Below, one piece after another: positions 588 to 12,599 of a stretch of DNA of 18,519 nt. The DNA lies in the NCBI GenBank assembly GCA_030743915.1, contig JASLRP010000520.1, forward strand, positions 1 through 18,519, read 5' to 3'. The notes under the pieces were generated by a model that worked only from the letters and a program-made list of their open reading frames with translations, did no database searches and was not told the origin of the DNA. A program made the translations under genes and the position numbers. This stretch comes from SAR202 cluster bacterium (GTDB taxonomy: Bacteria > Chloroflexota > Dehalococcoidia > Lucifugimonadales > UBA1123). Numbering within the stretch: the first letter of the stretch is position 1; the number at the start of each line of letters is the position of its first letter.

Positions 588-598
588 GTGAACAGAAG

Positions 599-639
599 CC
601 GCCATTCTGAGTCTGCGGACGAAGAATCTCGCCGTCAGT
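599..639. repeat. Copy 1 of a 41-bp imperfect direct repeat (CCGCCATTCTGAGTCTGCGGACGAAGAATCTCGCCGTCAGT), 11 nt after the LLM stop codon
   Basis: Aligns to 10927-10967 with 36/41 identities in the same orientation. Both copies lie immediately 3' of a + strand gene. Confidence 0.75.
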
Positions 640-753
640 AACACAACGGTTGATCTGCAACAACCAGATGCTTCACCGCCGCTCAGCAAGGCGACATATC
701 CCCGACTGCAAATACGCCCCTCCTGACACCCGAAAACCTGATACCTATTTACC

Positions 754-2457
754 TCAGAAAGCGTCCGGCTCCGACGCGATTCGTTCCATGTCTGCGGGAG
801 TGTACGACCCCAGCGAACGGAAATTCAACTCCGTGTAGTTCTTCGTCCACCGCATGGCGATCTTATATGCGCTCTCGTACCGGGCGACCTGAGCCTTCAG
901 CTCGGCCTGTGAAGCCTCGTCGGAGGGCGCAGCTTCATTGCGTCGGCTGATGATGTCCGCCAACTCTTCCTGGAGAAGTTGCTTTATCAGCGCGAAATCG
1001 TGAACCTGACCGGTATTGGCGTCCTTGGCCCCGTGCAGAATGCGCTGAGCAGTCTGAGCCACGGAGATTCTGCCCGTCGCCAGGTCTTCCATGAGAGCCG
1101 GGTGTATTCCGGGTTGGCCCTCCAGACTGTCGATTCCCTTGGCGCCGCGACCCATCAGCCAGCCCTCGGCATATTCAATGAGCATCCGCGCGTTGCGACG
1201 GGAGCCTTCGACGGTGATCGGCCCTTCTGGAGGCGTAATCTCCACAGGGTAATTCTCTGGAATGCGCATCTCATCGGTGGGCTTCCAGCCAGAAGCGGCG
1301 ACTTCCTTGAAGGGGTCTGCGGCGGTCTTCATGTGGAAAATGTGGGCCACCCAGCCTCGCAGGAACCCCTGCTGGGCCTCCCACTCCTTGTCCTGACGGA
1401 TGGACTGTCCGGCGGCCTCGTTCACCTCATCTTCTCGGCTAGGCAGGGCGGTGGCCATGCCTCCGATAGGGGCGGCTCCGTGCTGGAGACACACCGCCAC
1501 CAGACGCCGAAATATGTTGGTCATGAACTCTGTTGTCTTGATGTCAACGCCAAATCGGTCTGGCCAGACCTGAGCAGGGTCGGCCATCACGTACTCCAGA
1601 ATAGAGGCTTTCAGGTCCCAACGAGCGGCGTTCAGTCCACCGGCGTATGGGCCAAGCTCCCACAGAATTTCGTGCATGATGTACACGACGGGGAGGGACT
1701 CGACCAGCACCACGGCTTTGATAACGGCGTCCTCGGCATAGCCGAGACGCTCCACGCTGAAATCGAACAAGTCTCTATAGAAGCGAGCCTCTTCTATAAC
1801 TTCGATCTTCGGCAGGTAGAAATAGACGCCCTGGCCTCGTTTGGCCTGCTCGCGTCCGGCGTAGGCCAGCGTGAGCGCGGTCCCCAGAATTGCCGCTGGA
1901 ATCGGCTCTCCATCGATGGTGAAGTCCGGCTCGTCCAGGTGGGTCCCCCGCTCGCGGTGCATGAAGAACGGCAGGTCGCCATCGGCAATCTCGTAGGTCC
2001 GGTTTCGGACCGGATTATGGAAGCTCAGAGTTCGGGTCACGGCATTTCGGCGGTTCAACGCCGCCTGCACCGTGTCGCCAAGACTATGGCCTGCCGAGTC
2101 CTCGTCATCATCCAGATAACCTTCGGCGCGTTCGCCCTCGGCCCCTGGATTCAGGGCGTTGATCGCCATATTGGTGATGGATACCGGCCCGGAGATTTCG
2201 ATACCCGGCCTCAGCAAGTCATCGGGCAGGGATGGCACCTGCCAGTCGCCGGAGTTGATATCGGACTCCGGGGGGAAGGTCGGCGATTCATTCTGTTGAA
2301 GGGCTCGCTGGAGCAGAGCGTCTTTCTTGAAACGGATATCGGCGATGGCAGGCGCGAACTTATCGTAGGCTGCGACTATGTACTCCAAGAAATCAGGAGT
2401 GAAAAGCTCTTCCGCTCCAGGCACATTCGAAAAACTAACTCTATCTGCTTCAGACAT
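754..2457 (-). CDS. aceB: Malate synthase (class A-like, glyoxylate cycle), 567 aa
   Basis: Contains the diagnostic 'GVYFYLPKIEVIEEARFYRDLF' motif (YFYLPK(L/I)E...EAR..N..F of malate synthase A) and 'GGLNAARWDLKASI' (cf. the RWDYIFS region). ATG at 2455-2457 is preceded by AAGGGGA. The overlapping 535-aa + ORF (979-2586) is antisense and compositional. Confidence 0.8.
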   Translation of the reverse strand: MSEADRVSFSNVPGAEELFTPDFLEYIVAAYDKFAPAIADIRFKKDALLQRALQQNESPTFPPESDINSGDWQVPSLPDDLLRPGIEISGPVSITNMAINALNPGAEGERAEGYLDDDEDSAGHSLGDTVQAALNRRNAVTRTLSFHNPVRNRTYEIADGDLPFFMHRERGTHLDEPDFTIDGEPIPAAILGTALTLAYAGREQAKRGQGVYFYLPKIEVIEEARFYRDLFDFSVERLGYAEDAVIKAVVLVESLPVVYIMHEILWELGPYAGGLNAARWDLKASILEYVMADPAQVWPDRFGVDIKTTEFMTNIFRRLVAVCLQHGAAPIGGMATALPSREDEVNEAAGQSIRQDKEWEAQQGFLRGWVAHIFHMKTAADPFKEVAASGWKPTDEMRIPENYPVEITPPEGPITVEGSRRNARMLIEYAEGWLMGRGAKGIDSLEGQPGIHPALMEDLATGRISVAQTAQRILHGAKDANTGQVHDFALIKQLLQEELADIISRRNEAAPSDEASQAELKAQVARYESAYKIAMRWTKNYTELNFRSLGSYTPADMERIASEPDAF

Positions 2458-2500
2458 GAAATTCCCCTTCGCGTAACACCTTCAAAAAATTCCCCTCGGA

Positions 2501-2530
2501 ATATTAAGGGCGTTGAAAGTCTGCTGTCAA
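2501..2530 (-). promoter_or_regulatory. Candidate sigma-70 promoter for malate synthase (minus strand TTGACA-N18-TAATAT)
   Basis: On the minus strand, TTGACA (plus-strand 2525-2530), an 18-nt spacer and TAATAT (2501-2506). Predicted TSS is ~35 nt upstream of the ATG. Confidence 0.4.
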
Positions 2531-2926
2531 TGATTTCCGAATCGCCTACGAATCTTGAATCTTACTCTTGGAGCGCGAACGTTTAACTTTAGCTGTCGCG
2601 CATGCTCGCAGCTCATCTGCCTATATGTGCCGACATGCTAATTCTCGTCAAAATGGACCGCACATGGGACTGTTTTATGCCCGTATTCATCCCGATTCAA
2701 AATTCTTCACGTATCTCTCATGGACATTGTCACGACATTTTCATGCCATTACCGCTGATGGCCGATAACCTGAGGCGAATGGCAATGTAGCTGTCAGACA
2801 TAATCTGTAGCGTTATGAGGGGATGGGCACACAAAACTGCCCAACCCTCTTTCTTCACGTTATTTTTCTATAATACGTCGTCTGTCAGCGTTATTCTGAT
2901 GTTTATTGTTACGTAACTTTTAATAA

Positions 2927-2955
2927 TTGACAGTTTTCGTAATTGAGTGTAAATT
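2927..2955 (+). promoter_or_regulatory. Candidate sigma-70 promoter (TTGACA-N17-TAAATT) facing the giant gene; implies a ~620-nt leader
   Basis: Perfect -35 TTGACA at 2927-2932, a 17-nt spacer and TAAATT at 2950-2955, all inside an AT-rich patch (2860-2960). Confidence 0.4.
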
Positions 2956-3578
2956 GCGACGCAAGCCTTTGCGGGCTGGCGCCCAAAGCTATGGGTGTTG
3001 TCTCGCAGAAGTCTGGCAAAGTTAGCACACAATTTTGGTACGCATGTCTGAGCCTTTGTTGTTCGGCAGATTCTAAATAGCACAGGAGTTTTTGCCAGCA
3101 TTGCGGCGACCTTTCGTGGGCTGTGGCGGCATTGTGGTGTGCCGCCCGATCAGAACCGCCCGTTCGGTCCACCGCTTCGAACTTTGGAAAAGCGCTTAGT
3201 CTTACAACCTGATTAATACAGGCACGCCATAAAATCCGTTGAAATCTTGGCGCATTCAAGATATCTGCGTCAAGTTGGTCTGGATGAGGAACCAGCTTCA
3301 GATTTATGTCAGCCCGCCGAAATCAAGACTCCAATATACAACACGATAGTCGAATGACCTCGGCACGATCAGCAATTCTGCCTGGGAATGACCGGCGGTT
3401 ATTCACGTCGAGTCGTTTTGATGTTGTTGAAAATACGGCCAAATCGATGATCAACATTACAAATATCCGCGCAACGAAAAAACCGACGCAGCATCCGACA
3501 GCAAGGAGTCGGTAACGCTCAACGATCAGGAAACACATTCAGAACTCAATCTAGCCCCTGAAACGGAGGAGTTGTTGT

Positions 3579-3695
3579 ATGTCATTGAAGACAATATCAG
3601 CCTTTAGACACTGGAAGATCATCGGCGTTTTACTTTTGTTATTGACGATTGGAGTGTTTGGCGTGGAGTCCTCGGGCGTGCCTGTTGCGCATGCA
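3579..3695 (+). other. Predicted Sec signal peptide of the giant protein (aa 1-39)
   Basis: A basic n-region (K, R, H, K), then a run of Leu/Ile/Val, then AHA followed by DD. Confidence 0.6.
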
Positions 3696-6600
3696 GACGA
3701 TCCGACTCCAAATGATATTCCTCACGATCCTCCGCCCATGGCGAGCGCCATTATTGACAATGGCACCGTTCACATTGGCGTTTTAGATCAAGGTCATCTG
3801 GGAGTCGGAGTGCCTTATAGCAGCGACCCTGCCAGTATAGGCGCAGTGGGCCTTCGCTACGTCCCCATACCCGCTTCTGCGTCGACCGAACCGGGCTGTA
3901 TCTGTGAAGGATGGGGCGTTGCAGACGCTGGCACAGGCCAGAACGCTCACGCCGACGTCGCTGTCGGCGGAGTCTCCGGAATGACCGTCGACTCGTTTAC
4001 TTCCTCAGGTGTGTCACCATCCGGGGCGGTTGGCTCCGTCGGCACCCAGGCAGAATCGGTGGTGACAGCCTTTGGTCGGTTGAGGGTGACTCATGATTTC
4101 CATCCAACGCCTCTGACACCCAACCTCTATGAGGTGGATGTCACCATCGAGAATATCTCCACAACTGACGTCACAGACCTACGTTACACGCGCACTATGG
4201 ACTGGGACATCTATCCAACATACTTTGACGAGTACGTGACCATTCAGGGTGTCGGCAGCGCAGCCAACCTGCTCTATGCCGACGACAACGGGTTCCAGGA
4301 CCCGAACCCGCTGCTGACACGATCAGCCAGCAACGTCGGCAACATGGTTGACAACGGGCCAGACGACCACGGCGCTCATTTCGACTTTGGATTCGGCCCG
4401 CTTCCCGCTGGTGGAACACAGACGTTCAGAATCTACTACGGCGCTGCTCCAACTGAAGCTGGCGCGAATGCCGCGCTGACAGCCGTCGGCGCCGAGGCAT
4501 ACTCTTTTGGTCAGTCCAATGGGGGCCAAGTCACCGGTTCTCCAGTAACTTTCATCTTCGCATTCTCTGGCGTTGGCGGTTCGGTGTTGATCCCGCCCGA
4601 TCTGTTGCTGGAGCCCACTGCGGACACCAACAATGTCGGCGAGACTCACACGCTAACCGCCACTTTGACCGACGACTCCGGCAACCCCGTTTCCGGCGTC
4701 ACAGTGACCTTCGAGGTCGTCGGCGGCCCCAACACCGGAACGCTTGGAACAGCGGTCACTAACTCCAGTGGTGTAGCGACCATTAGTTACTCGTCCACCG
4801 TGACAGGGACCGACGCCATCGTTGCCAGCTTCGTGGATGGAGATAGCAATACTCAGAACTCCAACGGAGTCACCAAGGAATGGGTAACCCCGCCCAACGT
4901 GGCACCAACCGTATCCACCCCCAACTCCAGCGTCACGGTTGACGAAGGCGACACTGCCAACAATAACGGCAGTTTCTCCGATCCCGACGCCGGCGACAGC
5001 GTGACCATCTCCGCCTCTGTGGGCACAGTCACGCAATCAGGCTCTCAATCCGGCACGTGGAGCTGGTCTTTCAACTCCACAGACGGACCCGCTGAAAGCC
5101 AGACGGTGACCATCACAGCCACTGACGGCTCCAGCGCCATAGGGACAACAACATTCGGCCTGACGGTCAACAACGTGGCGCCCAACATCGATAAGGGCGT
5201 GGTCGATCTCAATACATGGACAGCCGAGAACATAAGCTCAGGCTCCGGCGTTTGGACCGTCGACGGCAGCGGCAATAGCGTGTTCCAGAGCGTCAACGGC
5301 AACCCGACGTTCTTCTACAGTGACTTCAGCTCTCTGGGCAGCCCGCTTCAAGGGACCATCAGAGTTGAGACCACAAGCGACGATGACTTTATCGGTTTCG
5401 CCATCGGGTTCAACCCCGGCGACACTGCCAACCCCAGCGCCGACTACCTGCTGGTTGACTGGAAACAGTATAATCAGCCAGACGCATGGGGCTATGGCGC
5501 TCAAGGCCTTGCCGTATCCAGAGTGAATGGAGTCGGAAGTAACCCAGATTTCTGGTCGCACAGTGGCGCGCTGACCGAGCTTGCCAGGGGCATCACCCTA
5601 GGGAACACCGGTTGGGGCGATTACCAGATCAACGAATTCCAGTTCGACTTCACGCCGACGAGACTTCGCGTTTTCGTCAACGGAACACTGGAACTGGACG
5701 TCACGCCTACCGGCCCGAACTTCAGCGACGGCAGGTTCGCATTCTTCAACTTCTCTCAGAGCAGCGTGCGCTACAGCGCGATACAGTCCGACTCAATTGC
5801 AGGAGTCGAAGCATCGCCTGTTTCGTTCAGCAAGAACTTTACAGACCCGGGTATTCCAGACACCCACACCGCCACCATTAATTGGGGCGACTCAGGCACA
5901 GGCGGAGAAACAGTGACTTCGCCGTCCGGCAGCACTCCGGGCACCGTCTCCGGGACCCATACCTACGCCGACAACGGCACATATACGGTCACAGTCACCG
6001 TCTGCGACAGCGACCTAGATTGCGACAGCGACACGTTCACTGCCACGATTGCCAACGTCGATCCCACAGTGGATGCTAATGGCCCTTACTCGGTTAACGA
6101 GGGATCCTCGGTGACACTTAACGCGACAGGTTTCGACGTGGCCGGCGCTGCCGACCCGCTGACCTACGCGTGGGACCTGGACAACAACGGGTCTTTCGAG
6201 ACTCCGGGCCAGAGCGCACCTTTCAATGGCATCGACGGCCCGTCCACCCACACGGTCAACGTGCAGGTCAATGACGGCGATGGTGGGACTGCAGTTGACT
6301 CCGCCACGGTCACCGTCAACAACCTGGACCCGGTCGTCACCGCGACTGGCGACACCATCAACGAGGGTGATACTGCGACGGTTAGCGGGACCATCTCCGA
6401 CCCCGGAACGCCTGACTCCTTCACGGTTGTCATCGACTGGGGCGGGAGTGAAGGTTCCGATACTCTGAGTCTTCCGGCCGGTTCGACTTCGTACTCGGCG
6501 ACTCACGTCTACGACGACGACGATCCCACCGCCACTCTGTCGGACAACTACGGAATCTCCGTGACGGTAACTGACGACGACGGCGGCATTGGCTCCGCCT

Positions 6601-9600
6601 CTGCGACCGTCACAGTCAACAACGTGGACCCGGTCATCGAATCGGGCGTGGTCGATCTCAACTCCTGGACCGTCGAAAACTCCAGCCCTGGTGCAGGAGT
6701 CTGGACCGTCGATGGCAGCGGCAACAGCGTATTCCAGAGTGTCAACGGCAACCCGACATTCTTCTACAGCGACTTCAATGCCCTGGGAAGCCCCCTTGAG
6801 GGCGCTATCGCGGTTGAGACTGGCAGCGATGACGACTACATAGGCTTCGCCATAGGCTTCGAGCCAGGCGACACTTCAAACCCCAGCGCTGACTTCCTGC
6901 TTGTGGACTGGAAACAGGGCGACCAGAGCGGCGCTCTGGCCGGTCTTGCGGTTTCGCGGGTTACCGGTGTGCCCACCGGCAGTGATTACTGGACACACTC
7001 AGGGGCCATCACCGAGCTTGCCAGGGGCATCACCCTGGGAAGCACTGGATGGGCCAATTATGCGTCCAACCAGTTCCTGTTCGAATTCTCACCCACGCGC
7101 CTTCGGGTATTCGTCAACGGCACTCTCGAACTGGACGTCACGCCTACCGGCCCGAACTTCAGCGATGGAAGGTTCGCCTTCTACAACTATTCGCAGTATT
7201 ACGTCCGCTACAGTGCCATACAATCCGACTCCATAAGCGGAAACGAAGCATCGCCTGTTTCCTTCACCAAGAACTTCACTGACGTCGGCATTCCCGACAC
7301 ACACACCGCCACCATTCTTTGGGGCGACACCAGTTCCAGCGCTGGCACAATCACTGAGCCCTCAGGCAGCACGCCTGGGACAGTCTCTGGGACCCATACC
7401 TACGCCGACAACGGCACGTACACCGTCACAGTCACAGTGTGTGATGACGACGGAGGTTGTGACAGCGACACGTTCACTGCCACGATTGCCAACGTCGATC
7501 CCACAGTGGATGCTAATGGCCCTTACTCGGTTAACGAGGGATCCTCGGTGACACTTAACGCGACAGGTTTCGACGTGGCCGGCCCCGCCGACCCGCTGAC
7601 CTACGCGTGGGACCTGGACAACAACGGTTCCTTCGAGACGCCAGGACAAAGCGTGCCATTCAACGGCATCGATGGCCCATCCACCCACACGGTGAATGTG
7701 CAGGTCAATGACGGCGACGGCGGCATCGCAGTGGACACCACCACGGTCACCGTCAACAATGTGGATCCGACGATTGTCACCACTTTCCAGGTGGCGCCGA
7801 TCCCTGAAGCGTCAGTATCAACCTCCGGTAACCTGGTAGCGCAGGCCACCGATCCTGCCGGCTCCAACGACCCACTCGCATTCGACTTCGACTGTGACAA
7901 CAACGGCTCGTACGAGACCCCGTCCAACCCCAGCACATCCGCTGCCGACTGCTACTTCGACGACAACGGTAGCTACACTGTGGGCGTCAGAGTGACTGAC
8001 GGAGACGGCGGACAGGCCATCGGGTCGGTCATCGCGGTCGTCACTAACGTTTCGCCGACCGCGTTCATACCCAACGTCGGCCCGGTGGACGAAGGCTCGC
8101 CTGCAGTGATCACCTTCGAAGCCGAGTTCGACCCGTCGGTCGCTGACACCACAGCCGGGTTCCACTACTCCGTTGCCTGCGACGGTCTGGCGAGTTCGCT
8201 GGCCGGGTCGTATGCGGCAGCAGGAACATCGGACAGCGTGAACTGCGTCTACGGCGACAACGGCACATACACCGTCATGGGGCGCATCTTCGACAAAGAC
8301 GATGGCTCCAACGACTACAGCGCCACTGTCACCGTCGTCAACGTGGACCCGGTCGTCACCGCGACTGGCGACACCATTGACGAGGCAGGCACGGCAACAG
8401 TCAGCGGGACGATCACGGACCCTGGATTCCTGGACACCTTCACGGTGGTCATTGACTGGGGTCCCGGCGAAGGCTCGACGACTCTGAGCCTTGGAGCGGG
8501 CGCGACGACCTACTCGGCATCCCATCAGTACATTGATGACGACCCGACCGCCACCCTGTCGGACGACTACGGAATCTCCGTGACCGTCACCGACGACGAT
8601 GGCGGCGTGGGCACAGCTTCGACAGTAGTCACCGTCAACAACGTGGACCCCGAGCTAACACTCGACCTGACAGGCTCACTGCCGTTCGTCGGTGGAGACG
8701 CCTTCATCGGTCGCAAGGGCGTCGAGCAAACTCACTTTGCAGACGCCACAGACGTTGGCGCCGACGATCTGACCTTCGATTGGACCTTCGCTCCGGATCC
8801 GACATTAGACCCGGAAACCTACCTCAATGGTGGATCAATCCCGATGTCGGCCTCGGATTCGGCTTCAGTGACTTTCGCAGCGCCGGGCATCTACACCGTC
8901 GAAGTGGACGTGACTGACGATGACGGCGGTTCCGCCGACGCTCTCAGTCAGACCAAGATCGTCACCGACGACTGCGACTGCGCCAAGTCCAAGGGCTTCT
9001 GGAAGCATCAGTTCAAGGCTTCGACCACTGGCAAGGGCAAACAGCACATCGACGACGCATCTCTGGAAATCTACCTGGACATCGTCGAATACGTCTCCAG
9101 TGTCTTCAGTGAGGATGTCGCTCTCGCTGGCATCATCGAAGCGCACAACGTCTTCGATCCACCCAAGTCCAACAACGGCGGAGGAACAGGCACCGGCTCC
9201 GGCAGCGGATCTGGCTCTGGCTCCAATGAAGCCACCAACCCGTCGACTACCGGATCCAAGAAAAAGAAGAAGGGCGGAGACTCCGGTTCCGGCTCTGACT
9301 CGGACACAGGATCAGGCTCTGACAAGAAGCTGGAAAAGAAGAAGCAGGACGCTCTCCAGCAGACTCTGGCCGCATGGCTCAACTTCGCCAAGGGCGGCAT
9401 CGACTGGGACGAGGACATCACCATAGACGGCGGAACGGGAACAGGATCCAACAGTGGCTCGGGCACAGGCTCCAAGCCTGCCACGCCTCCTGTGGTCATG
9501 GACTTCAGCGATCTGATCGCTGAGGTTGAGGCCATCCTGAACAACCCGCTATCCACCGCTGACGACTTCGAGCATGCAAAGGACCTGGCTGAGTCCGTCA

Positions 9601-9779
9601 ACAAGCACGACAAGGACAACCCTGACTGCGACACCGGCTCCGGCTCCAATAGCGGTTCCGGTTCTGGCAGTGGATCGGGAACGGGTTCCAAGTCGAGCAA
9701 GGGCGGAGACGACTCCGGCTCTGGCACAGGCTCCAAGTCTTCCAAGGACAACAAGAAGAACAAGAGGAACAGGAAATAG
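3579..9779 (+). CDS. Giant secreted cell-surface/adhesin-like protein (2066 aa). Domain order: Sec signal peptide, bacterial Ig-like (Big) domain, 2x [jellyroll/LamG-like module + PKD domains], further PKD-like domains, a Cys-containing C-terminal module, then a Gly/Ser-linker polybasic tail
   Basis: GGAGG lies 9 nt upstream of ATG 3579. The N-terminus 'MSLKTISAFRHWKIIGVLLLLLTIGVFGVESSGVPVAHA|DD' has a hydrophobic core and an AHA cleavage motif. PKD signatures include 'INWGDSG...GTHTYADNGTYTVTVTVCDSD' and 'YAWDLDNNGSFETPG...HTVNVQVNDGDGG'. A Big-like segment reads 'GETHTLTATLTDDSGNPVSGVTVTFEVVGG...ATISYSS'. The tail is rich in D, T, S, G and N, with no internal stops over 6.2 kb. Confidence 0.9.
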   Translation: MSLKTISAFRHWKIIGVLLLLLTIGVFGVESSGVPVAHADDPTPNDIPHDPPPMASAIIDNGTVHIGVLDQGHLGVGVPYSSDPASIGAVGLRYVPIPASASTEPGCICEGWGVADAGTGQNAHADVAVGGVSGMTVDSFTSSGVSPSGAVGSVGTQAESVVTAFGRLRVTHDFHPTPLTPNLYEVDVTIENISTTDVTDLRYTRTMDWDIYPTYFDEYVTIQGVGSAANLLYADDNGFQDPNPLLTRSASNVGNMVDNGPDDHGAHFDFGFGPLPAGGTQTFRIYYGAAPTEAGANAALTAVGAEAYSFGQSNGGQVTGSPVTFIFAFSGVGGSVLIPPDLLLEPTADTNNVGETHTLTATLTDDSGNPVSGVTVTFEVVGGPNTGTLGTAVTNSSGVATISYSSTVTGTDAIVASFVDGDSNTQNSNGVTKEWVTPPNVAPTVSTPNSSVTVDEGDTANNNGSFSDPDAGDSVTISASVGTVTQSGSQSGTWSWSFNSTDGPAESQTVTITATDGSSAIGTTTFGLTVNNVAPNIDKGVVDLNTWTAENISSGSGVWTVDGSGNSVFQSVNGNPTFFYSDFSSLGSPLQGTIRVETTSDDDFIGFAIGFNPGDTANPSADYLLVDWKQYNQPDAWGYGAQGLAVSRVNGVGSNPDFWSHSGALTELARGITLGNTGWGDYQINEFQFDFTPTRLRVFVNGTLELDVTPTGPNFSDGRFAFFNFSQSSVRYSAIQSDSIAGVEASPVSFSKNFTDPGIPDTHTATINWGDSGTGGETVTSPSGSTPGTVSGTHTYADNGTYTVTVTVCDSDLDCDSDTFTATIANVDPTVDANGPYSVNEGSSVTLNATGFDVAGAADPLTYAWDLDNNGSFETPGQSAPFNGIDGPSTHTVNVQVNDGDGGTAVDSATVTVNNLDPVVTATGDTINEGDTATVSGTISDPGTPDSFTVVIDWGGSEGSDTLSLPAGSTSYSATHVYDDDDPTATLSDNYGISVTVTDDDGGIGSASATVTVNNVDPVIESGVVDLNSWTVENSSPGAGVWTVDGSGNSVFQSVNGNPTFFYSDFNALGSPLEGAIAVETGSDDDYIGFAIGFEPGDTSNPSADFLLVDWKQGDQSGALAGLAVSRVTGVPTGSDYWTHSGAITELARGITLGSTGWANYASNQFLFEFSPTRLRVFVNGTLELDVTPTGPNFSDGRFAFYNYSQYYVRYSAIQSDSISGNEASPVSFTKNFTDVGIPDTHTATILWGDTSSSAGTITEPSGSTPGTVSGTHTYADNGTYTVTVTVCDDDGGCDSDTFTATIANVDPTVDANGPYSVNEGSSVTLNATGFDVAGPADPLTYAWDLDNNGSFETPGQSVPFNGIDGPSTHTVNVQVNDGDGGIAVDTTTVTVNNVDPTIVTTFQVAPIPEASVSTSGNLVAQATDPAGSNDPLAFDFDCDNNGSYETPSNPSTSAADCYFDDNGSYTVGVRVTDGDGGQAIGSVIAVVTNVSPTAFIPNVGPVDEGSPAVITFEAEFDPSVADTTAGFHYSVACDGLASSLAGSYAAAGTSDSVNCVYGDNGTYTVMGRIFDKDDGSNDYSATVTVVNVDPVVTATGDTIDEAGTATVSGTITDPGFLDTFTVVIDWGPGEGSTTLSLGAGATTYSASHQYIDDDPTATLSDDYGISVTVTDDDGGVGTASTVVTVNNVDPELTLDLTGSLPFVGGDAFIGRKGVEQTHFADATDVGADDLTFDWTFAPDPTLDPETYLNGGSIPMSASDSASVTFAAPGIYTVEVDVTDDDGGSADALSQTKIVTDDCDCAKSKGFWKHQFKASTTGKGKQHIDDASLEIYLDIVEYVSSVFSEDVALAGIIEAHNVFDPPKSNNGGGTGTGSGSGSGSGSNEATNPSTTGSKKKKKGGDSGSGSDSDTGSGSDKKLEKKKQDALQQTLAAWLNFAKGGIDWDEDITIDGGTGTGSNSGSGTGSKPATPPVVMDFSDLIAEVEAILNNPLSTADDFEHAKDLAESVNKHDKDNPDCDTGSGSNSGSGSGSGSGTGSKSSKGGDDSGSGTGSKSSKDNKKNKRNRK
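5166..6614 (+). repeat. Intragenic tandem repeat unit A (~1.45 kb: jellyroll module + 2 PKD + 1 PKD-like 'VVTATGDT' module)
   Basis: Begins 'NNVAPNIDKGVVDLNTW'. Re-aligns with unit B at an offset of 1449 nt (first part) or 1437 nt (later part). The 140 nt at 6061-6200 differ from 7498-7637 at only 4 positions. Confidence 0.85.
6615..7760 (+). repeat. Intragenic tandem repeat unit B (jellyroll module + 2 PKD), which lacks the terminal PKD-like module of unit A
   Basis: Begins 'NNVDPVIESGVVDLNSW'. The PKD portion is ~97% identical to unit A at the nucleotide level, and the jellyroll portion roughly 80-85% identical. Confidence 0.85.
8344..8650 (+). repeat. Third, dispersed copy of the PKD-like 'NVDPVVTATGDTI(N/D)E...TVVIDWG...ISVTVTDDDGG' module, which also occurs at 6324-6614
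   Basis: GTGGACCCGGTCGTCACCGCGACTGGCGACACCAT is shared between 6327 and 8343, and the protein alignment is clear. Confidence 0.8.
9170..9760 (+). repeat. Coding microsatellite-like (GGC/TCC/GGA/TCT)n tracts encoding (GSGSGT)n linkers interleaved with K-rich and short helical segments
   Basis: At least five runs are visible, at 9191-9226, 9280-9324, 9430-9470, 9631-9690 and 9711-9734. The C-terminal tail reads '...SKDNKKNKRNRK*'. Confidence 0.8.
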
Positions 9780-9813
9780 TTCGCCCTGACAATCGGATAG
9801 GCATTTAGCGGGA

Positions 9814-9850
9814 GGGCCGGTCACAAATTGTGACCGGCCCTCTCTTTCTA
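9814..9850 (+). terminator. Rho-independent terminator of the giant gene
   Basis: GGGCCGGTCACA (9814-9825), loop AAT, TGTGACCGGCCC (9829-9840): a 12-bp perfect GC-rich stem, followed by TCTCTTTCTAT. Confidence 0.75.
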
Positions 9851-9914
9851 TATCATTGAGGGAACAGGAATCTTTGTCTCACTCATACAAGATTCCAGAT
9901 TGAAGGAGGAAGAC

Positions 9915-10904
9915 ATGGCATTGTTGCTGGACCGAAACACAATTGAAGGTCTCCTGGATATGGACAAGATGGTCGAAATACTAGAGCAGGCGTTTGGCGA
10001 GCTGGCATCTGGAAGCGCGGTGATGCCTCCTCGGACGGCGGTTGTCGATGCCGATGTCAACGGCTGGTATGCCTTCATGCCCGCCCAACTCAAGAGCATG
10101 GGAGCGTTGGGCGTCAAAGCGGTCACCGTTTACAAGGACAATGCGTCCAAGCACAGCTTGCCCGTTACGCTGGCGACTATCATCATGCTGGACGGCGACA
10201 CCGGCCAGGCTATTGCGGTCATGGATGGCGGATACATCACTGCCATGAGGACCGGCGCTGTTTCGGGACTCGCCACCAAACATCTGGCGCGCTCCAACTC
10301 TAAAGTCGCGGGGGTCCTGGGGACCGGAGTCCAGGCCCGCGCTCAGCTTTGGGGAATGGCCGCCGGAGCCAGCCTGGACCGACTGATGGTGTTCTCAATG
10401 GACCCGATGGACGCTCAGAAAGCCTTCGCTGACGATGTCGCCAAACTCACCGGACTGCCCGTTGATCTGGCATCCAGCGCCCAGGAGCTTGTGGAGAGCG
10501 TGGACATCCTCGCGACGGCCACCACAGCCATTAATCCCATTATCGACGGTGACTGGGTGAGACCTGGAACTCACATCAACGGCATCGGCTCCCACGCCCC
10601 CGGAGTCAGAGAGTTGGACACCAAGACGGTCGTGAAGTCCAAACTGGTGTGCGACCAGAAAGAAGCGTGCCTGGCCGAGGCCGGAGACATCCAGATACCC
10701 ATCGAGGAAGGCGCCCTCAGCCCCGATGATATCTACGGAGACCTGGGCGACGTGGTGGCCGGGACGATTCCGGGCAGGGAGAATGACGACGAGATCACGC
10801 TGTTCAAGAGCGTCGGCCTGTCCATCCAGGACATTTCAGCGTCCTACTACGTCTACAAGCAAGCGCTGGAGCAGGGAGCAGGCACCGAGTTCAGTTTCTC
10901 TTAA
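9915..10904 (+). CDS. Ornithine cyclodeaminase / mu-crystallin family NAD(P)-dependent enzyme (329 aa from ATG 9915)
   Basis: Rossmann loop 'GVLGTGVQARAQL'; family-typical C-terminal 'ITLFKSVGLSIQDISAS' (cf. 'TLFKSVG.A..D' of OCD, mu-crystallin and archaeal-type AlaDH). AGGAGG at 9904-9909 sits 5 nt before ATG 9915. The track's TTG at 9900 lies inside the RBS and is therefore unlikely to be the start. Confidence 0.8.
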   Translation: MALLLDRNTIEGLLDMDKMVEILEQAFGELASGSAVMPPRTAVVDADVNGWYAFMPAQLKSMGALGVKAVTVYKDNASKHSLPVTLATIIMLDGDTGQAIAVMDGGYITAMRTGAVSGLATKHLARSNSKVAGVLGTGVQARAQLWGMAAGASLDRLMVFSMDPMDAQKAFADDVAKLTGLPVDLASSAQELVESVDILATATTAINPIIDGDWVRPGTHINGIGSHAPGVRELDTKTVVKSKLVCDQKEACLAEAGDIQIPIEEGALSPDDIYGDLGDVVAGTIPGRENDDEITLFKSVGLSIQDISASYYVYKQALEQGAGTEFSFS

Positions 10905-10926
10905 TCAAGCCCTCAGCCAATGTGAC

Positions 10927-10967
10927 CCGCCATTCTGAATCCGCAGATGAAGAATCTGGCCGTCAGT
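10927..10967. repeat. Copy 2 of the 41-bp direct repeat (CCGCCATTCTGAATCCGCAGATGAAGAATCTGGCCGTCAGT), 22 nt after the OCD stop codon
   Basis: 36/41 identical to 599-639. Its 3' end forms the 5' arm of the hairpin at 10958-10988. Confidence 0.75.
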
Positions 10968-10988
10968 TACCGTGGTTCACTGACGGCC
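10958..10988. other. Perfect 10-bp stem hairpin (GGCCGTCAGT, 11-nt loop, ACTGACGGCC) with no T-tract; it is built partly from repeat copy 2
   Basis: The inverted repeat was read directly from the sequence. Confidence 0.6.
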
Positions 10989-11007
10989 ATTTCCACGAAA
11001 ACAGAAA

Positions 11008-11062
11008 CTCCCCGAGACCTCTGGAGGATAATCTCGGGGAGTCAGTTTCGTTCCCGTTTGTG
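11008..11062. terminator. Bidirectional rho-independent terminator between the convergent OCD-family gene (+) and the pilin-like gene (-)
   Basis: CTCCCCGAG (11008-11016), 16-nt loop, CTCGGGGAG (11033-11041). On the + strand it is followed by TCAGTTTCGTTCCCGTTTGT. On the - strand the hairpin is followed by TTTCTGTTTTCG. Confidence 0.65.
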
Positions 11063-11066
11063 ATGT

Positions 11067-11101
11067 GCCCGGTCTCAGGTATTCATTCACTGAGACCGGG
11101 C
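11067..11101. other. Third hairpin (GCCCGGTCTCA, 13-nt loop, TGAGACCGGGC; 11-bp perfect stem), 23 nt after the pilin-like gene's stop on the - strand; possible additional or processing terminator
   Basis: The inverted repeat was read directly. No clear T-run follows on either strand. Confidence 0.5.
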
Positions 11102-11123
11102 GCTCATGCTTTCTGAATCGCTC

Positions 11124-12200
11124 TTAGTTGAGGTTCATTACGGTGTCGATGATGTCAGGCATGACTCGCTCGATCACTACCGTGCCGCCGTCCTCAGGTC
11201 GGACTTCCAGGTCCCACTTCACATCGCCAATCACCGGGTAGGTGTTCGACAGAGCTGTGAGGCTCACGGTCAGTTCCGCTTTCTCGCCAGCTTCCAGCAG
11301 GTCGTCGCTGTCGTTGGCTCCGATGAAGGTCTTGGACCAGTACACGTCCTTGATGACCTGGTTCTTGTCCGTGTAGGTCAGGATCATGGTGTGGCCACTG
11401 TCGGAGTCGGAGTTGCCATCGGCGTCGGCATCAGAAGGCTCAGAGACGTCGATGGGCTCGCCTTCCAGTGTGTTAGTGATGGTGACCAGCAGAGAGGTCG
11501 CCTGGCCCTGCGCAACCACTTCGTCCACGTTCAGAGTTATGGCGCCATCGTCTGTTACCAGATCAATGCCCACGCACTTGACCGCAGTCATGTCGGAGTT
11601 ATCAGTGATTGCCAGCGTGACCAGTTTCCATGTGTTGGCGACCAGCACAGGCAGGTCGATGTCTTCTAATGAGCTTCCGCAGGCCGCTGTGTCGTCGAGT
11701 CGTAGCTGCAGATCGCCTGCGGCGGTGGTCGTGCCGTACTTGACCCAGAGACTCACCGAGTCGATGCTGGACAGGTCCACGGTGGCGGACAGGTCCGAGT
11801 ATGCGACCAGCCCGGTGGTGAAGTCGGCATCAATGGCCATGTCGGCGCTGCCGGTGCCTTGTTTCTTGTCGGTTGTGTCTGCTGTCACAGTCGTGCTGGC
11901 AGAGCCGGTCCATGCGGAGTCGGCCAGGGAGAGGGTCTTGTTGCTGACGCCGTTGGCGACAACGCCACCCTTGAGTGCCAGGGAGCTTCTCGCGCCCTTC
12001 AGGCCTGCGTGGATCGTCTCTTTGCCGCGCTCGGCAGAGAAGATGCCCGTGGACAGGACCGTGAAGGCGAACACGGACGCTACGACCACGAACGCAATCA
12101 GGATGATGGCGGTCTCAAGACCGGTGACTCCCCGTTCCTGCTTTAGTGTCCTGCTCGCGTCAGCCAGAGGCTGGAAGCGGAACCCTTTCAAAAGTTTCAT
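11124..12200 (-). CDS. Class-III signal peptide protein with an archaellin-like (archaeal flagellin N-terminal) / type IV pilin-like N-terminus and a ~300-aa Ser/Thr/Asp-rich C-terminal domain (358 aa from ATG 12198-12200)
   Basis: 'MKLLKGFRFQPLADASRTLKQERG|VTGLETAIILIAFVVVASVFAFTVLSTGIFSAERGKE' carries a charged leader ending in G, Glu at +5, and a ~22-aa hydrophobic helix. It resembles the archaellin consensus (...GIGTLIVFIAMVLVAAVAA..VLINTSGFLQQKA..GKE..). GGAGGAGGG lies 8 nt upstream of this ATG. The 71-codon extension to 12413 in the track has no RBS and is Cys- and Pro-rich junk. Confidence 0.65.
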   Translation of the reverse strand: MKLLKGFRFQPLADASRTLKQERGVTGLETAIILIAFVVVASVFAFTVLSTGIFSAERGKETIHAGLKGARSSLALKGGVVANGVSNKTLSLADSAWTGSASTTVTADTTDKKQGTGSADMAIDADFTTGLVAYSDLSATVDLSSIDSVSLWVKYGTTTAAGDLQLRLDDTAACGSSLEDIDLPVLVANTWKLVTLAITDNSDMTAVKCVGIDLVTDDGAITLNVDEVVAQGQATSLLVTITNTLEGEPIDVSEPSDADADGNSDSDSGHTMILTYTDKNQVIKDVYWSKTFIGANDSDDLLEAGEKAELTVSLTALSNTYPVIGDVKWDLEVRPEDGGTVVIERVMPDIIDTVMNLN

Positions 12201-12288
12201 TGTGTGTGCCCTCCTCCGCGGATTCGTTTCCCTTTGAGATTCATTGACTTGAAATCTACGATACCGCTGTGGAGGAAAAATCAACATT

Positions 12289-12348
12289 GGGCAAGCACAC
12301 AAAGTGAAGGAAGGCAGGGACGCAATATTGATTGCGGGCAAGCACACA
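12289..12348. promoter_or_regulatory. Candidate regulatory architecture upstream of the pilin-like gene: direct repeat GGGCAAGCACACA (12289-12301 and 12336-12348) flanking the inverted repeat CGCAAT-N4-ATTGCG (12321-12336)
   Basis: The exact 13-nt direct repeat is spaced 47 nt apart, with a palindrome between the copies, 90-150 nt upstream of ATG 12200. Confidence 0.35.
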
Positions 12349-12599
12349 CCAACATTCACACGGAAGATGCTCATATCCGCCGGCCCCATCAGCGCTAGCG
12401 CCCAGGTAATCACACGGATGCAATTTGGAGGGCCACACGTGCCGAAGGTGTCGGCTAGGTGTCAGTTTTGGTGTAGATTAGAGCAGAAACGTCAATTGCT
12501 GACGCATGTACTGTAGCCGACTCTGGCCTAACGATTCCGAAAAACCAGTTATGAAGTTGTCCATATTTCTGACAATCTCCGTACATGGTCCATACTATG

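Follow-up and report, generated by a model that had tools for sequence, protein, structure and literature searches.

Locus and repeat copies

The window analysed here is the whole 18,519-nt stretch of contig JASLRP010000520.1 from an SAR202 cluster bacterium (Chloroflexota). It carries two copies of a 41-nt repeat in direct orientation, at 599-639 and 10927-10967, which are identical at 36 of 41 nt, as initially annotated. Each follows a plus-strand gene: the first starts 11 nt past the stop codon (585-587) of an LLM oxidoreductase gene and the second 22 nt past that (10902-10904) of an OCD-family gene. Our results identified these 41-mers, with a probability of about 0.8, as SRM-type repeats of the Ssn system, i.e. 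oriented hairpins that a small, stand-alone Ssn-family GIY-YIG nuclease would use as its recognition element.

A degenerate 41-mer search of the window returned these two copies only, and two or more matches were obtained in none of 200 shuffles. The mismatches between them fall at repeat positions 13, 16, 19, 22 and 32. Since the malate synthase (MS) gene is on the minus strand (754-2457), both copies lie between convergent genes, LLM facing MS in the first case and OCD facing an archaeal-type flagellin-like gene in the second. A third copy, overlooked by the initial annotation, was found at 663-695 (37.8 bits with covariance model R1). It is inverted and diverged, and makes copy 1 one half of an inverted doublet. 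Scanning the window with model R1 revealed no arm beyond those at 598-632, 663-695 and 10926-10960. The two window copies are independent members of a family and do not form a functional pair. The parts of the elements are the following.

598-632, plus strand: arm A of copy 1, long type (R1 46.8 bits; structure reproduced by the minimum free energy (MFE) fold; family covariation)
601-603, plus strand: head GCC of arm A
604-608 and 623-627, plus strand: lower stem of arm A, ATTCT with AGAAT
609-610 and 621-622, plus strand: GA/GA internal loop of arm A
611-613 and 618-620, plus strand: upper stem of arm A, GTC with GAC, enclosing loop TGCG (614-617)
628-629, plus strand: 3' CT of arm A
633-662, no strand: doublet spacer of copy 1, aligning with the cassette of relative L112 in the same element orientation
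663-695, minus strand: arm B, inverted, short-type and partly degenerate, GCCTTGCTGAG-CGGCGG-TGAAGCATCT on the minus strand (R1 37.8 bits)
696-753, no strand: 58-nt tail that closes the copy-1 cassette, with AAAACCTGATAC at 733-744, homologous to the L112 cassette tail
10926-10960, plus strand: copy-2 arm, solo, long type (R1 49.0 bits; fold)
10932-10936 and 10951-10955: lower stem of the copy-2 arm, ATTCT with AGAAT, followed inwards by GA/GA, upper stem ATC/GAT and loop CGCA
10958-10988, plus strand: spacer hairpin of copy 2, perfect 10-bp stem GGCCGTCAGT / ACTGACGGCC, with no right arm after it (z = -4.5 for 10926-10990)
10904-11004, no strand: segment holding copy 2, absent from relative L156 (blastn blocks and L156 sequence)

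Arms A and B together form a (+,-) doublet, the usual architecture in SAR202 loci; the lower stem of arm B contains one U-U. The stretch GCCGTCAGT (631-639), which overlaps the end of arm A, is common to copy 2, and this is why the similarity reaches 41 nt, beyond the hairpin. The perfect 10-bp hairpin reported earlier for copy 2 (10958-10967 / 10979-10988) was also found. Local alignment of the copy-1 tail with the L112 tail scored 34 (shuffle mean 15, equalled by none of 500 shuffles). Its resemblance to the ssn leader in SAR202 was weak (47 of 500 shuffles equally good) and homology is not claimed.

Hairpin structure and covariation

The unit is composed, in order, of a head G(C/T)C, stem ATTCT, GA, an upper stem, a loop, the upper stem again, GA, stem AGAAT and CT. 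Its ten free core positions almost always resolve into 3 bp, a 4-nt loop and 3 bp. At least nine upper-stem combinations were recorded (GCC/GGC, GGC/GCC, GTC/GAC, GCG/CGC, GGT/ACC, ATC/GAT and others), and all three pairs were complementary in 42 of 47 Dehalococcoidia copies, for a chance expectation of about 5%. The covariation test, run on an alignment of 56 arms, gave 98% of cells paired and changes on both sides in five of eight pairs, a result matched by none of 500 shuffles and abolished in slid-partner controls. The third lower-stem pair varies between U-A, C-G and G-C in this alignment. Among 140 unique arms obtained with the covariance model, the GA/GA loop was kept in 136 and the 3' CT in 137. 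The head was GCC in 99, as in both window copies, and GTC in 38. The conserved C located 3' of the stem corresponds to C628 and C10956 in the window.

This geometry also accounts for the differences between the window copies. Positions 13 and 22 pair with each other in the stem, as G-C in one copy and A-T in the other (a compensatory change). Positions 16 and 19 open and close the loop, and the fifth mismatch, 32, is located beyond the hairpin. The third-codon pattern initially described therefore stood as a spacing, four of the five mismatches being 3 nt apart, but its cause is a compensatory pair plus loop ends and not codons.

Folding of single arms was unremarkable (z from -0.9 to -1.7), although the arm fold is the MFE structure; the structural case hence comes from covariation and not from folding stability. 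Rfam scans of the whole window, of the 176-nt copy-1 region and of canonical arms from two other loci gave no match on the arms at E values up to 10. A hammerhead-like reading of CUGA...GAA was rejected by eye, its core positions being a misfit. The heptamer GCGAAGC is present in many arms (e.g. the right arm of L039, L150). This sequence forms an unusually stable DNA mini-hairpin, which would fit a single-stranded DNA (ssDNA) substrate.

Dispersal and doublet organization

A scan of the genome collection with the core GCCATTCTGA-N10-GAAGAATCT gave 75 loci, across which 147 arms were verified with the covariance model. Each of four SAR202/Dehalococcoidia metagenome-assembled genomes (MAGs) contained 10-11 exact-core copies, which is a lower bound. 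Doublets were also encountered in Syntrophales, Binatia, Brocadiaceae, Phycisphaerae/Tepidisphaeraceae and Oscillospirales, and hairpin copies in at least five phyla besides that of the source. In 219 kb of metagenomic sequence around MS homologs, arms occurred only in the closest relative, L112. The expansion of the hairpin family is thus lineage-specific. Eight pattern matches in Clostridia and Bacteroidales were set aside, as their conserved flanks look coding and they scored only 21-29 bits. Among viral contigs, the sole match to a loose core pattern was an unrelated phage coding gene.

In SAR202, a second-type inverted arm is normally found 30-37 nt downstream of the first (27 of 47 copies under a strict pattern, several more by eye). 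In this second arm the upper stem is shorter and the third stem pair is G-C or C-G. The covarying pair is exactly where the left arm departs from the right one, so that each is self-complementary whereas inter-arm pairing is mismatched there, and the doublet is consequently an asymmetric unit that is copied whole.

According to crude open reading frame (ORF) calls, about two thirds of the elements do not overlap an ORF. Contexts were convergent in about 15 cases, tandem in 17 and divergent in 9, i.e. about 9 of 41 cleanly intergenic elements occupied divergent (promoter) regions. The elements lean to gene 3' ends with no strict link to stop codons. The initial suggestion of a recurrent REP-like or structured repeat after genes was therefore essentially right: the wider search uncovered dozens of dispersed copies, mostly intergenic, hairpin-forming and covarying, which are not strictly tied to stop codons.

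Flanking sequences differ among SAR202 subfamilies. One doublet subfamily (L039, L060, L104, L109 and others) is embedded in a palindromic element of about 190 nt with outer inverted repeats GGCCTGATGGTGATCAAC / GTTGATGACCATCAGGCC, and UBA1123 copies display AGCCGTCAGC-like heptamer repeats upstream. Such differing flanks indicate that the hairpin core is combined modularly.

Association with Ssn-type GIY-YIG genes

A tblastn probe with a GIY-YIG consensus found a gene at SAR202 locus L101, and the match was then verified. This gene encodes 95 residues and lies 77 nt downstream of a doublet; the arms at this SAR202 locus (L101/L131) are of the GCC type, as in the window. At least 2148 small proteins with PF01541 are homologous to its product. 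In all eight independent metagenomic loci of this GIY-YIG family, an arm was located at most 91 nt upstream of the start codon. Five of the eight displayed the order arm(+)-ORF-arm(-), with the ORF in the position of the spacer, and in three of these five an arm overlapped the stop codon. Likewise, about 12 of 110 inspected family proteins had tails encoded by the hairpin (e.g. ...DSSLRSE or ...DPSLRSG before the stop), in either hairpin orientation.

Some ssn loci have doublet arrays on both sides. At L145-L149 (e.g. L145 2039-3173) the doublets recur in tandem about every 147 nt, both before and after an ssn-type gene. The same arrangement of arm and gene was found on a RefSeq-annotated plasmid of Planktothrix agardhii. 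On this plasmid (p1, L158), two doublets lie at 745-909, within a span annotated as an MmeI-type restriction-modification coding sequence, and the ssn-type gene is situated between MmeI and DISARM drmA, a defence-island context.

In the 10 places listed, among at least 24 contigs that carry the identical Ssn protein, the SAR202 ssn gene occupies one conserved locus, with the order SRAP, doublet, gene, aminotransferase. From this single conserved locus, the gene appears to be single-copy beside many gene-less doublets. Its product and the SsnA ortholog of the gonococcus have 50% identity (E = 3e-31). At the gonococcal locus (L160), CGTCATTCCCGCGCAGGCGGGAATCTAG repeats flank the homologous gene, and the Neisseria repeat NTS and our arms have a common frame CGTCATTC...GAATCT, i.e. 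CG(T/C)CATTC...GAATCT. Neither NCBIfam nor PADLOC provided a useful name for the nuclease.

The Ssn system was described recently (Chenal et al., Nat Commun 2025, PMC11893778). SsnA is a 94-residue single-domain GIY-YIG nuclease (cd10448), and NTS, an oriented superset of dRS3, together with related repeats named SRMs, flanks ssnA homologs across phyla, with at least one flanking repeat in 71% and repeats on both sides in 42% (PMC11893778). SsnA binds the hairpin as ssDNA only, on one strand, and neither RNA nor double-stranded DNA. Ssn cuts ssDNA only, on one strand only and a few nucleotides upstream (PMC11893778). The trinucleotide 5' of the palindrome (GTC in NTS) governs cutting, and for binding no base is as crucial as the C that immediately follows the palindrome (PMC11893778). 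In N. meningitidis, the system acts to restrict the integration of DNA taken up by transformation, and the authors compared the NTS-ssnA-NTS layout to insertion sequences and drew the REP/RAYT analogy (PMC11893778). Chloroflexota and cyanobacteria are not mentioned in the main text of that study. Our own searches on SAR202 repeats, on GIY-YIG nucleases with MITE, palindromic, REPIN or RAYT elements, and on COG2827/UPF0213 retrieved no relevant literature, and those with sequence strings gave primers only.

The 41-mers as probable SRM-type repeats

The arm is an oriented, covarying and multi-copy hairpin that has been gained, lost or inverted at orthologous positions (see below) and is physically linked to Ssn-type genes. 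The positions that are invariant in the family are those shown to be biochemically important in Neisseria (PMC11893778). By analogy, the cognate SAR202 Ssn would recognize the sense strand as ssDNA and nick it just upstream of the head, and the gene-less doublets would be non-autonomous derivatives of SRM-ssn-SRM units, comparable to REPINs with RAYTs. We slightly favour such a transfer of Neisseria SsnA biochemistry to the SAR202 enzyme, with appreciably less assurance than the assignment of the repeats themselves.

Several points weigh against this interpretation. There is no ssn gene within the 18.5-kb window, the SAR202 ssn gene has a doublet upstream only, and homologs in S. meliloti and Aeromonas are devoid of such arms. 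The published SRM string HGTCWYN(0-2)YYVSBRHN(0-5)WNVSBRGN(0-2)RNCYNB matched nothing in the window nor in L101, L112, L141, L145, L150, L151, L153 and L158, for nine matches in the Neisseria control L160, and the GA/GA type therefore falls outside the published SRM definition. This string is a search heuristic derived from 29 genomes and not a biochemical definition. Cleavage of the GA/GA type is a prediction from the Neisseria analogy, and the putative partner is a hydrolytic nuclease without strand-transfer chemistry to account for mobility. Finally, the base-pair tally (27 G-U against 17 A-C) does not settle the strand or the nucleic acid by counts alone.

A more far-reaching scenario, which we regard as rather doubtful, is that GA/GA doublets are actively proliferating REPIN-like non-autonomous elements whose spread, inversion and loss would be driven by the single-copy SAR202 Ssn. 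Around variable surface-protein loci (here the adhesin block), they might modulate recombination as NTS-gene-NTS units do in Neisseria.

Alternative explanations

The best surviving alternative, still unlikely, is an RNA-level 3'-untranslated element, either an mRNA-stabilizing hairpin or a termination or processing signal. Both window copies are in the sense orientation of the upstream gene and near its stop codon, and among solo arms in tandem contexts the ratio of sense to antisense relative to the genes was 8:1 (a hand tally of small numbers with crude ORF calls). Tandem G-A pairs are moreover stable in RNA, and the MFE fold is that of the arm. Yet the folding z-scores given above are unremarkable, some elements lie in divergent (promoter) regions, and Neisseria SsnA does not bind RNA (PMC11893778). 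As for termination, this part of the initial annotation fails since no T-tract follows the arms. Terminator scans placed sites elsewhere, at 11037-11055 (+) and, in the spacer, at 666-647 (-). A terminator hairpin GGGCCGGTCACAAATTGTGACCGGCCC with a T-run follows the adhesin gene (9812-9850), and hairpins CCCCGAGA...TCTCGGGG and CCCGGTCTCAG...CTGAGACCGGG follow OCD (11003-11100). All are conserved in L156, those downstream of copy 2 being kept independently of it, so that the genes terminate independently of the repeat. The arms may nevertheless have a secondary effect at the RNA level.

Less probable still is a REP/REPIN family mobilized by a RAYT (Y1 HUH transposase) and unrelated to GIY-YIG enzymes. 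Inverted doublets of imperfect palindromes in high, largely intergenic copy number would agree with it, and one SAR202 MAG has a RAYT-like gene, the one RAYT-like pseudogene found by tblastn. However, this gene is interrupted by an in-frame TAG, goes with another palindrome, GTAG-GGGAGGGTTTCAAACC, and lies 6 kb from the nearest arm. The arms have no GTAG head (GCC/GTC-AT instead), and they flank Ssn genes at all eight loci. The RAYT-like gene itself (IS200-type Y1, L107 1-460) has the TAG where its relatives have W, and the GTAG-GGGAGGGTTTCAAACC palindrome occurs inside and just after it. This is a REP family of its own, the second in that SAR202 MAG.

Orthologous sites in relatives

The initial annotation also considered the two direct copies as an attL/attR-like footprint of a 10.3-kb island carrying MS, the adhesin gene and OCD. 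A variable giant adhesin does lie in the block between the two direct copies, but comparison with relatives refuted this explanation, which we consider highly improbable. In L112 (MS 87% identical), the convergent MS and LLM genes are kept with a homologous cassette between them. In L113 (MS 77%), both genes are kept with about 1 kb of other DNA and no arm between them. In L157, from a 3.6-Mb contig, they are 12 nt apart without an arm. The LLM-MS adjacency thus spans the copy-1 site in all three. In L157, MS and OCD are divergent neighbours separated by 243 nt, with no adhesin gene. As LLM, MS and OCD are contiguous there, MS and OCD belong to the backbone, which persists with or without hairpins, and only the block at about 2458-9899 is variable. 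This block, composed of a 1.1-kb AT-rich gap and a gene for a 2066-residue PKD/Big/TSP adhesin, is absent in L157 and does not adjoin MS in L112 or L113, and its ends are not marked by the 41-mers. The dispersal of dozens of copies in related genomes likewise argues against att sites, and a Pfam scan of the nine large window ORFs revealed no integrase.

The L112 cassette (long arm, spacer, short arm and tail; L112 4115-4296 against window 588-753) is opposite in orientation relative to the genes, which may reflect either an inversion in place or an independent insertion. It displays GTCAGGTTTT / AAAACCTGAC inverted repeats on both sides, in addition to what is found in the window. Copy 2, in turn, is a private indel. 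L156 (OCD 87%) has the same convergent OCD and flagellin-like genes and the same downstream terminator hairpins without window 10904-11004. The blastn blocks shared with the window were 9792-10903 and 11005-12469 only. In place of the 101-nt segment holding copy 2, L156 has 32 unrelated nucleotides, and the shared terminator hairpins start at 11005. No target site duplication was readable at this indel, its flanks being too diverged. Both repeat sites are accordingly independently polymorphic insertions.

The flagellin-like gene (window 11124-12413, minus strand; L156 2330-3406) encodes a homolog of archaeal-type flagellin (PF01917) in an apparent SAR202/Chloroflexota genome, and adjoins OCD also in this 87% relative.

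Peptide constraint or stop-codon read-through (RHSESADEES(R/G)RQ), proposed from the 3-nt spacing of four of the five mismatches and from the frame of copy 1, which does continue past the LLM stop codon as VNRSRHSESADEESRRQ up to the next stop, can practically be dismissed, because pair 13/22 is compensatory and 16/19 are loop ends, copy 2 is not likewise in frame with OCD, arms of the family are found in either orientation and, judging by stop-to-arm distances, in each of the three frames of upstream stops, and the hairpin-encoded tails of GIY-YIG proteins arise in either orientation.

Implications

The present analysis removed a false island call and showed that apparently codon-periodic mismatches can be pure hairpin covariation. 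With respect to the main text of the published description, the assignment as SRM-type repeats would extend the Ssn/SRM system to SAR202, other Chloroflexota, Planctomycetota and cyanobacteria. Because the variant is missed by the published string, SRM censuses probably undercount the family. By analogy with Neisseria, the GA/GA variant presumably has a distinct ssDNA cleavage specificity, and Ssn enzymes are under development as ssDNA tools. Orthologous sites at which the element is present, flipped or absent provide a handle on repeat movement.

Comparison with known systems

Like intrinsic terminators, the arms are hairpins found soon after stop codons, but their AT-rich stems contain mismatches and are not followed by a U-tract. 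With miniature inverted-repeat transposable elements (MITEs, e.g. Correia elements), they have in common a short, non-coding nature, inverted ends, presence/absence polymorphism and the existence of longer subfamilies with extra terminal inverted repeats (GGCCTGATGGTGATCAAC...). They differ in that target site duplication is not demonstrable here and no classical transposase is involved.

REP/REPIN-RAYT systems (Bertels and Rainey 2011, PMC3116915; Nunvar 2010) resemble the arms in that both consist of non-coding inverted doublets of imperfect palindromes, in many copies, together with an apparently single-copy, vertically kept and repeat-flanked nuclease gene. Here, however, a hydrolytic GIY-YIG enzyme takes the place of the Y1 HUH transposase, the arms lack a GTAG (or CGTC) head, and any transposition of Ssn-linked arms is conjectural. 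dRS3 and the Neisseria intergenic mosaic elements display an ATTC...GAAT core, repeat arrays around genes and an association with variable surface-protein loci, as is the case here; dRS3 is in contrast defined as ATTCCC-N8-GGGAAT and is a phage integration target, and no such integration was seen in our data.

NTS and SRMs are the most similar elements, with some differences. The arms carry a GA/GA loop and a short covarying upper stem, whereas NTS has a continuous CCCGCG/CGCGGG stem. SAR202 arms have a GCC head and mostly form inverted doublets with a 30-37-nt spacer. Their host is a free-living marine Chloroflexota, while the high-copy hosts highlighted in the published work are symbionts and pathogens (PMC11893778). 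Both are imperfect palindromes of 20-50 nt that form a hairpin, more precisely an oriented one of about 30 nt with a conserved 3-nt head and a conserved C after the stem. Both occur in largely intergenic, hundreds-copy families (on the SAR202 side, the 10-11 exact-core copies per MAG are a lower bound), and both flank a single-domain GIY-YIG gene of about 95 codons in the arrangement SRM-ssn-SRM.

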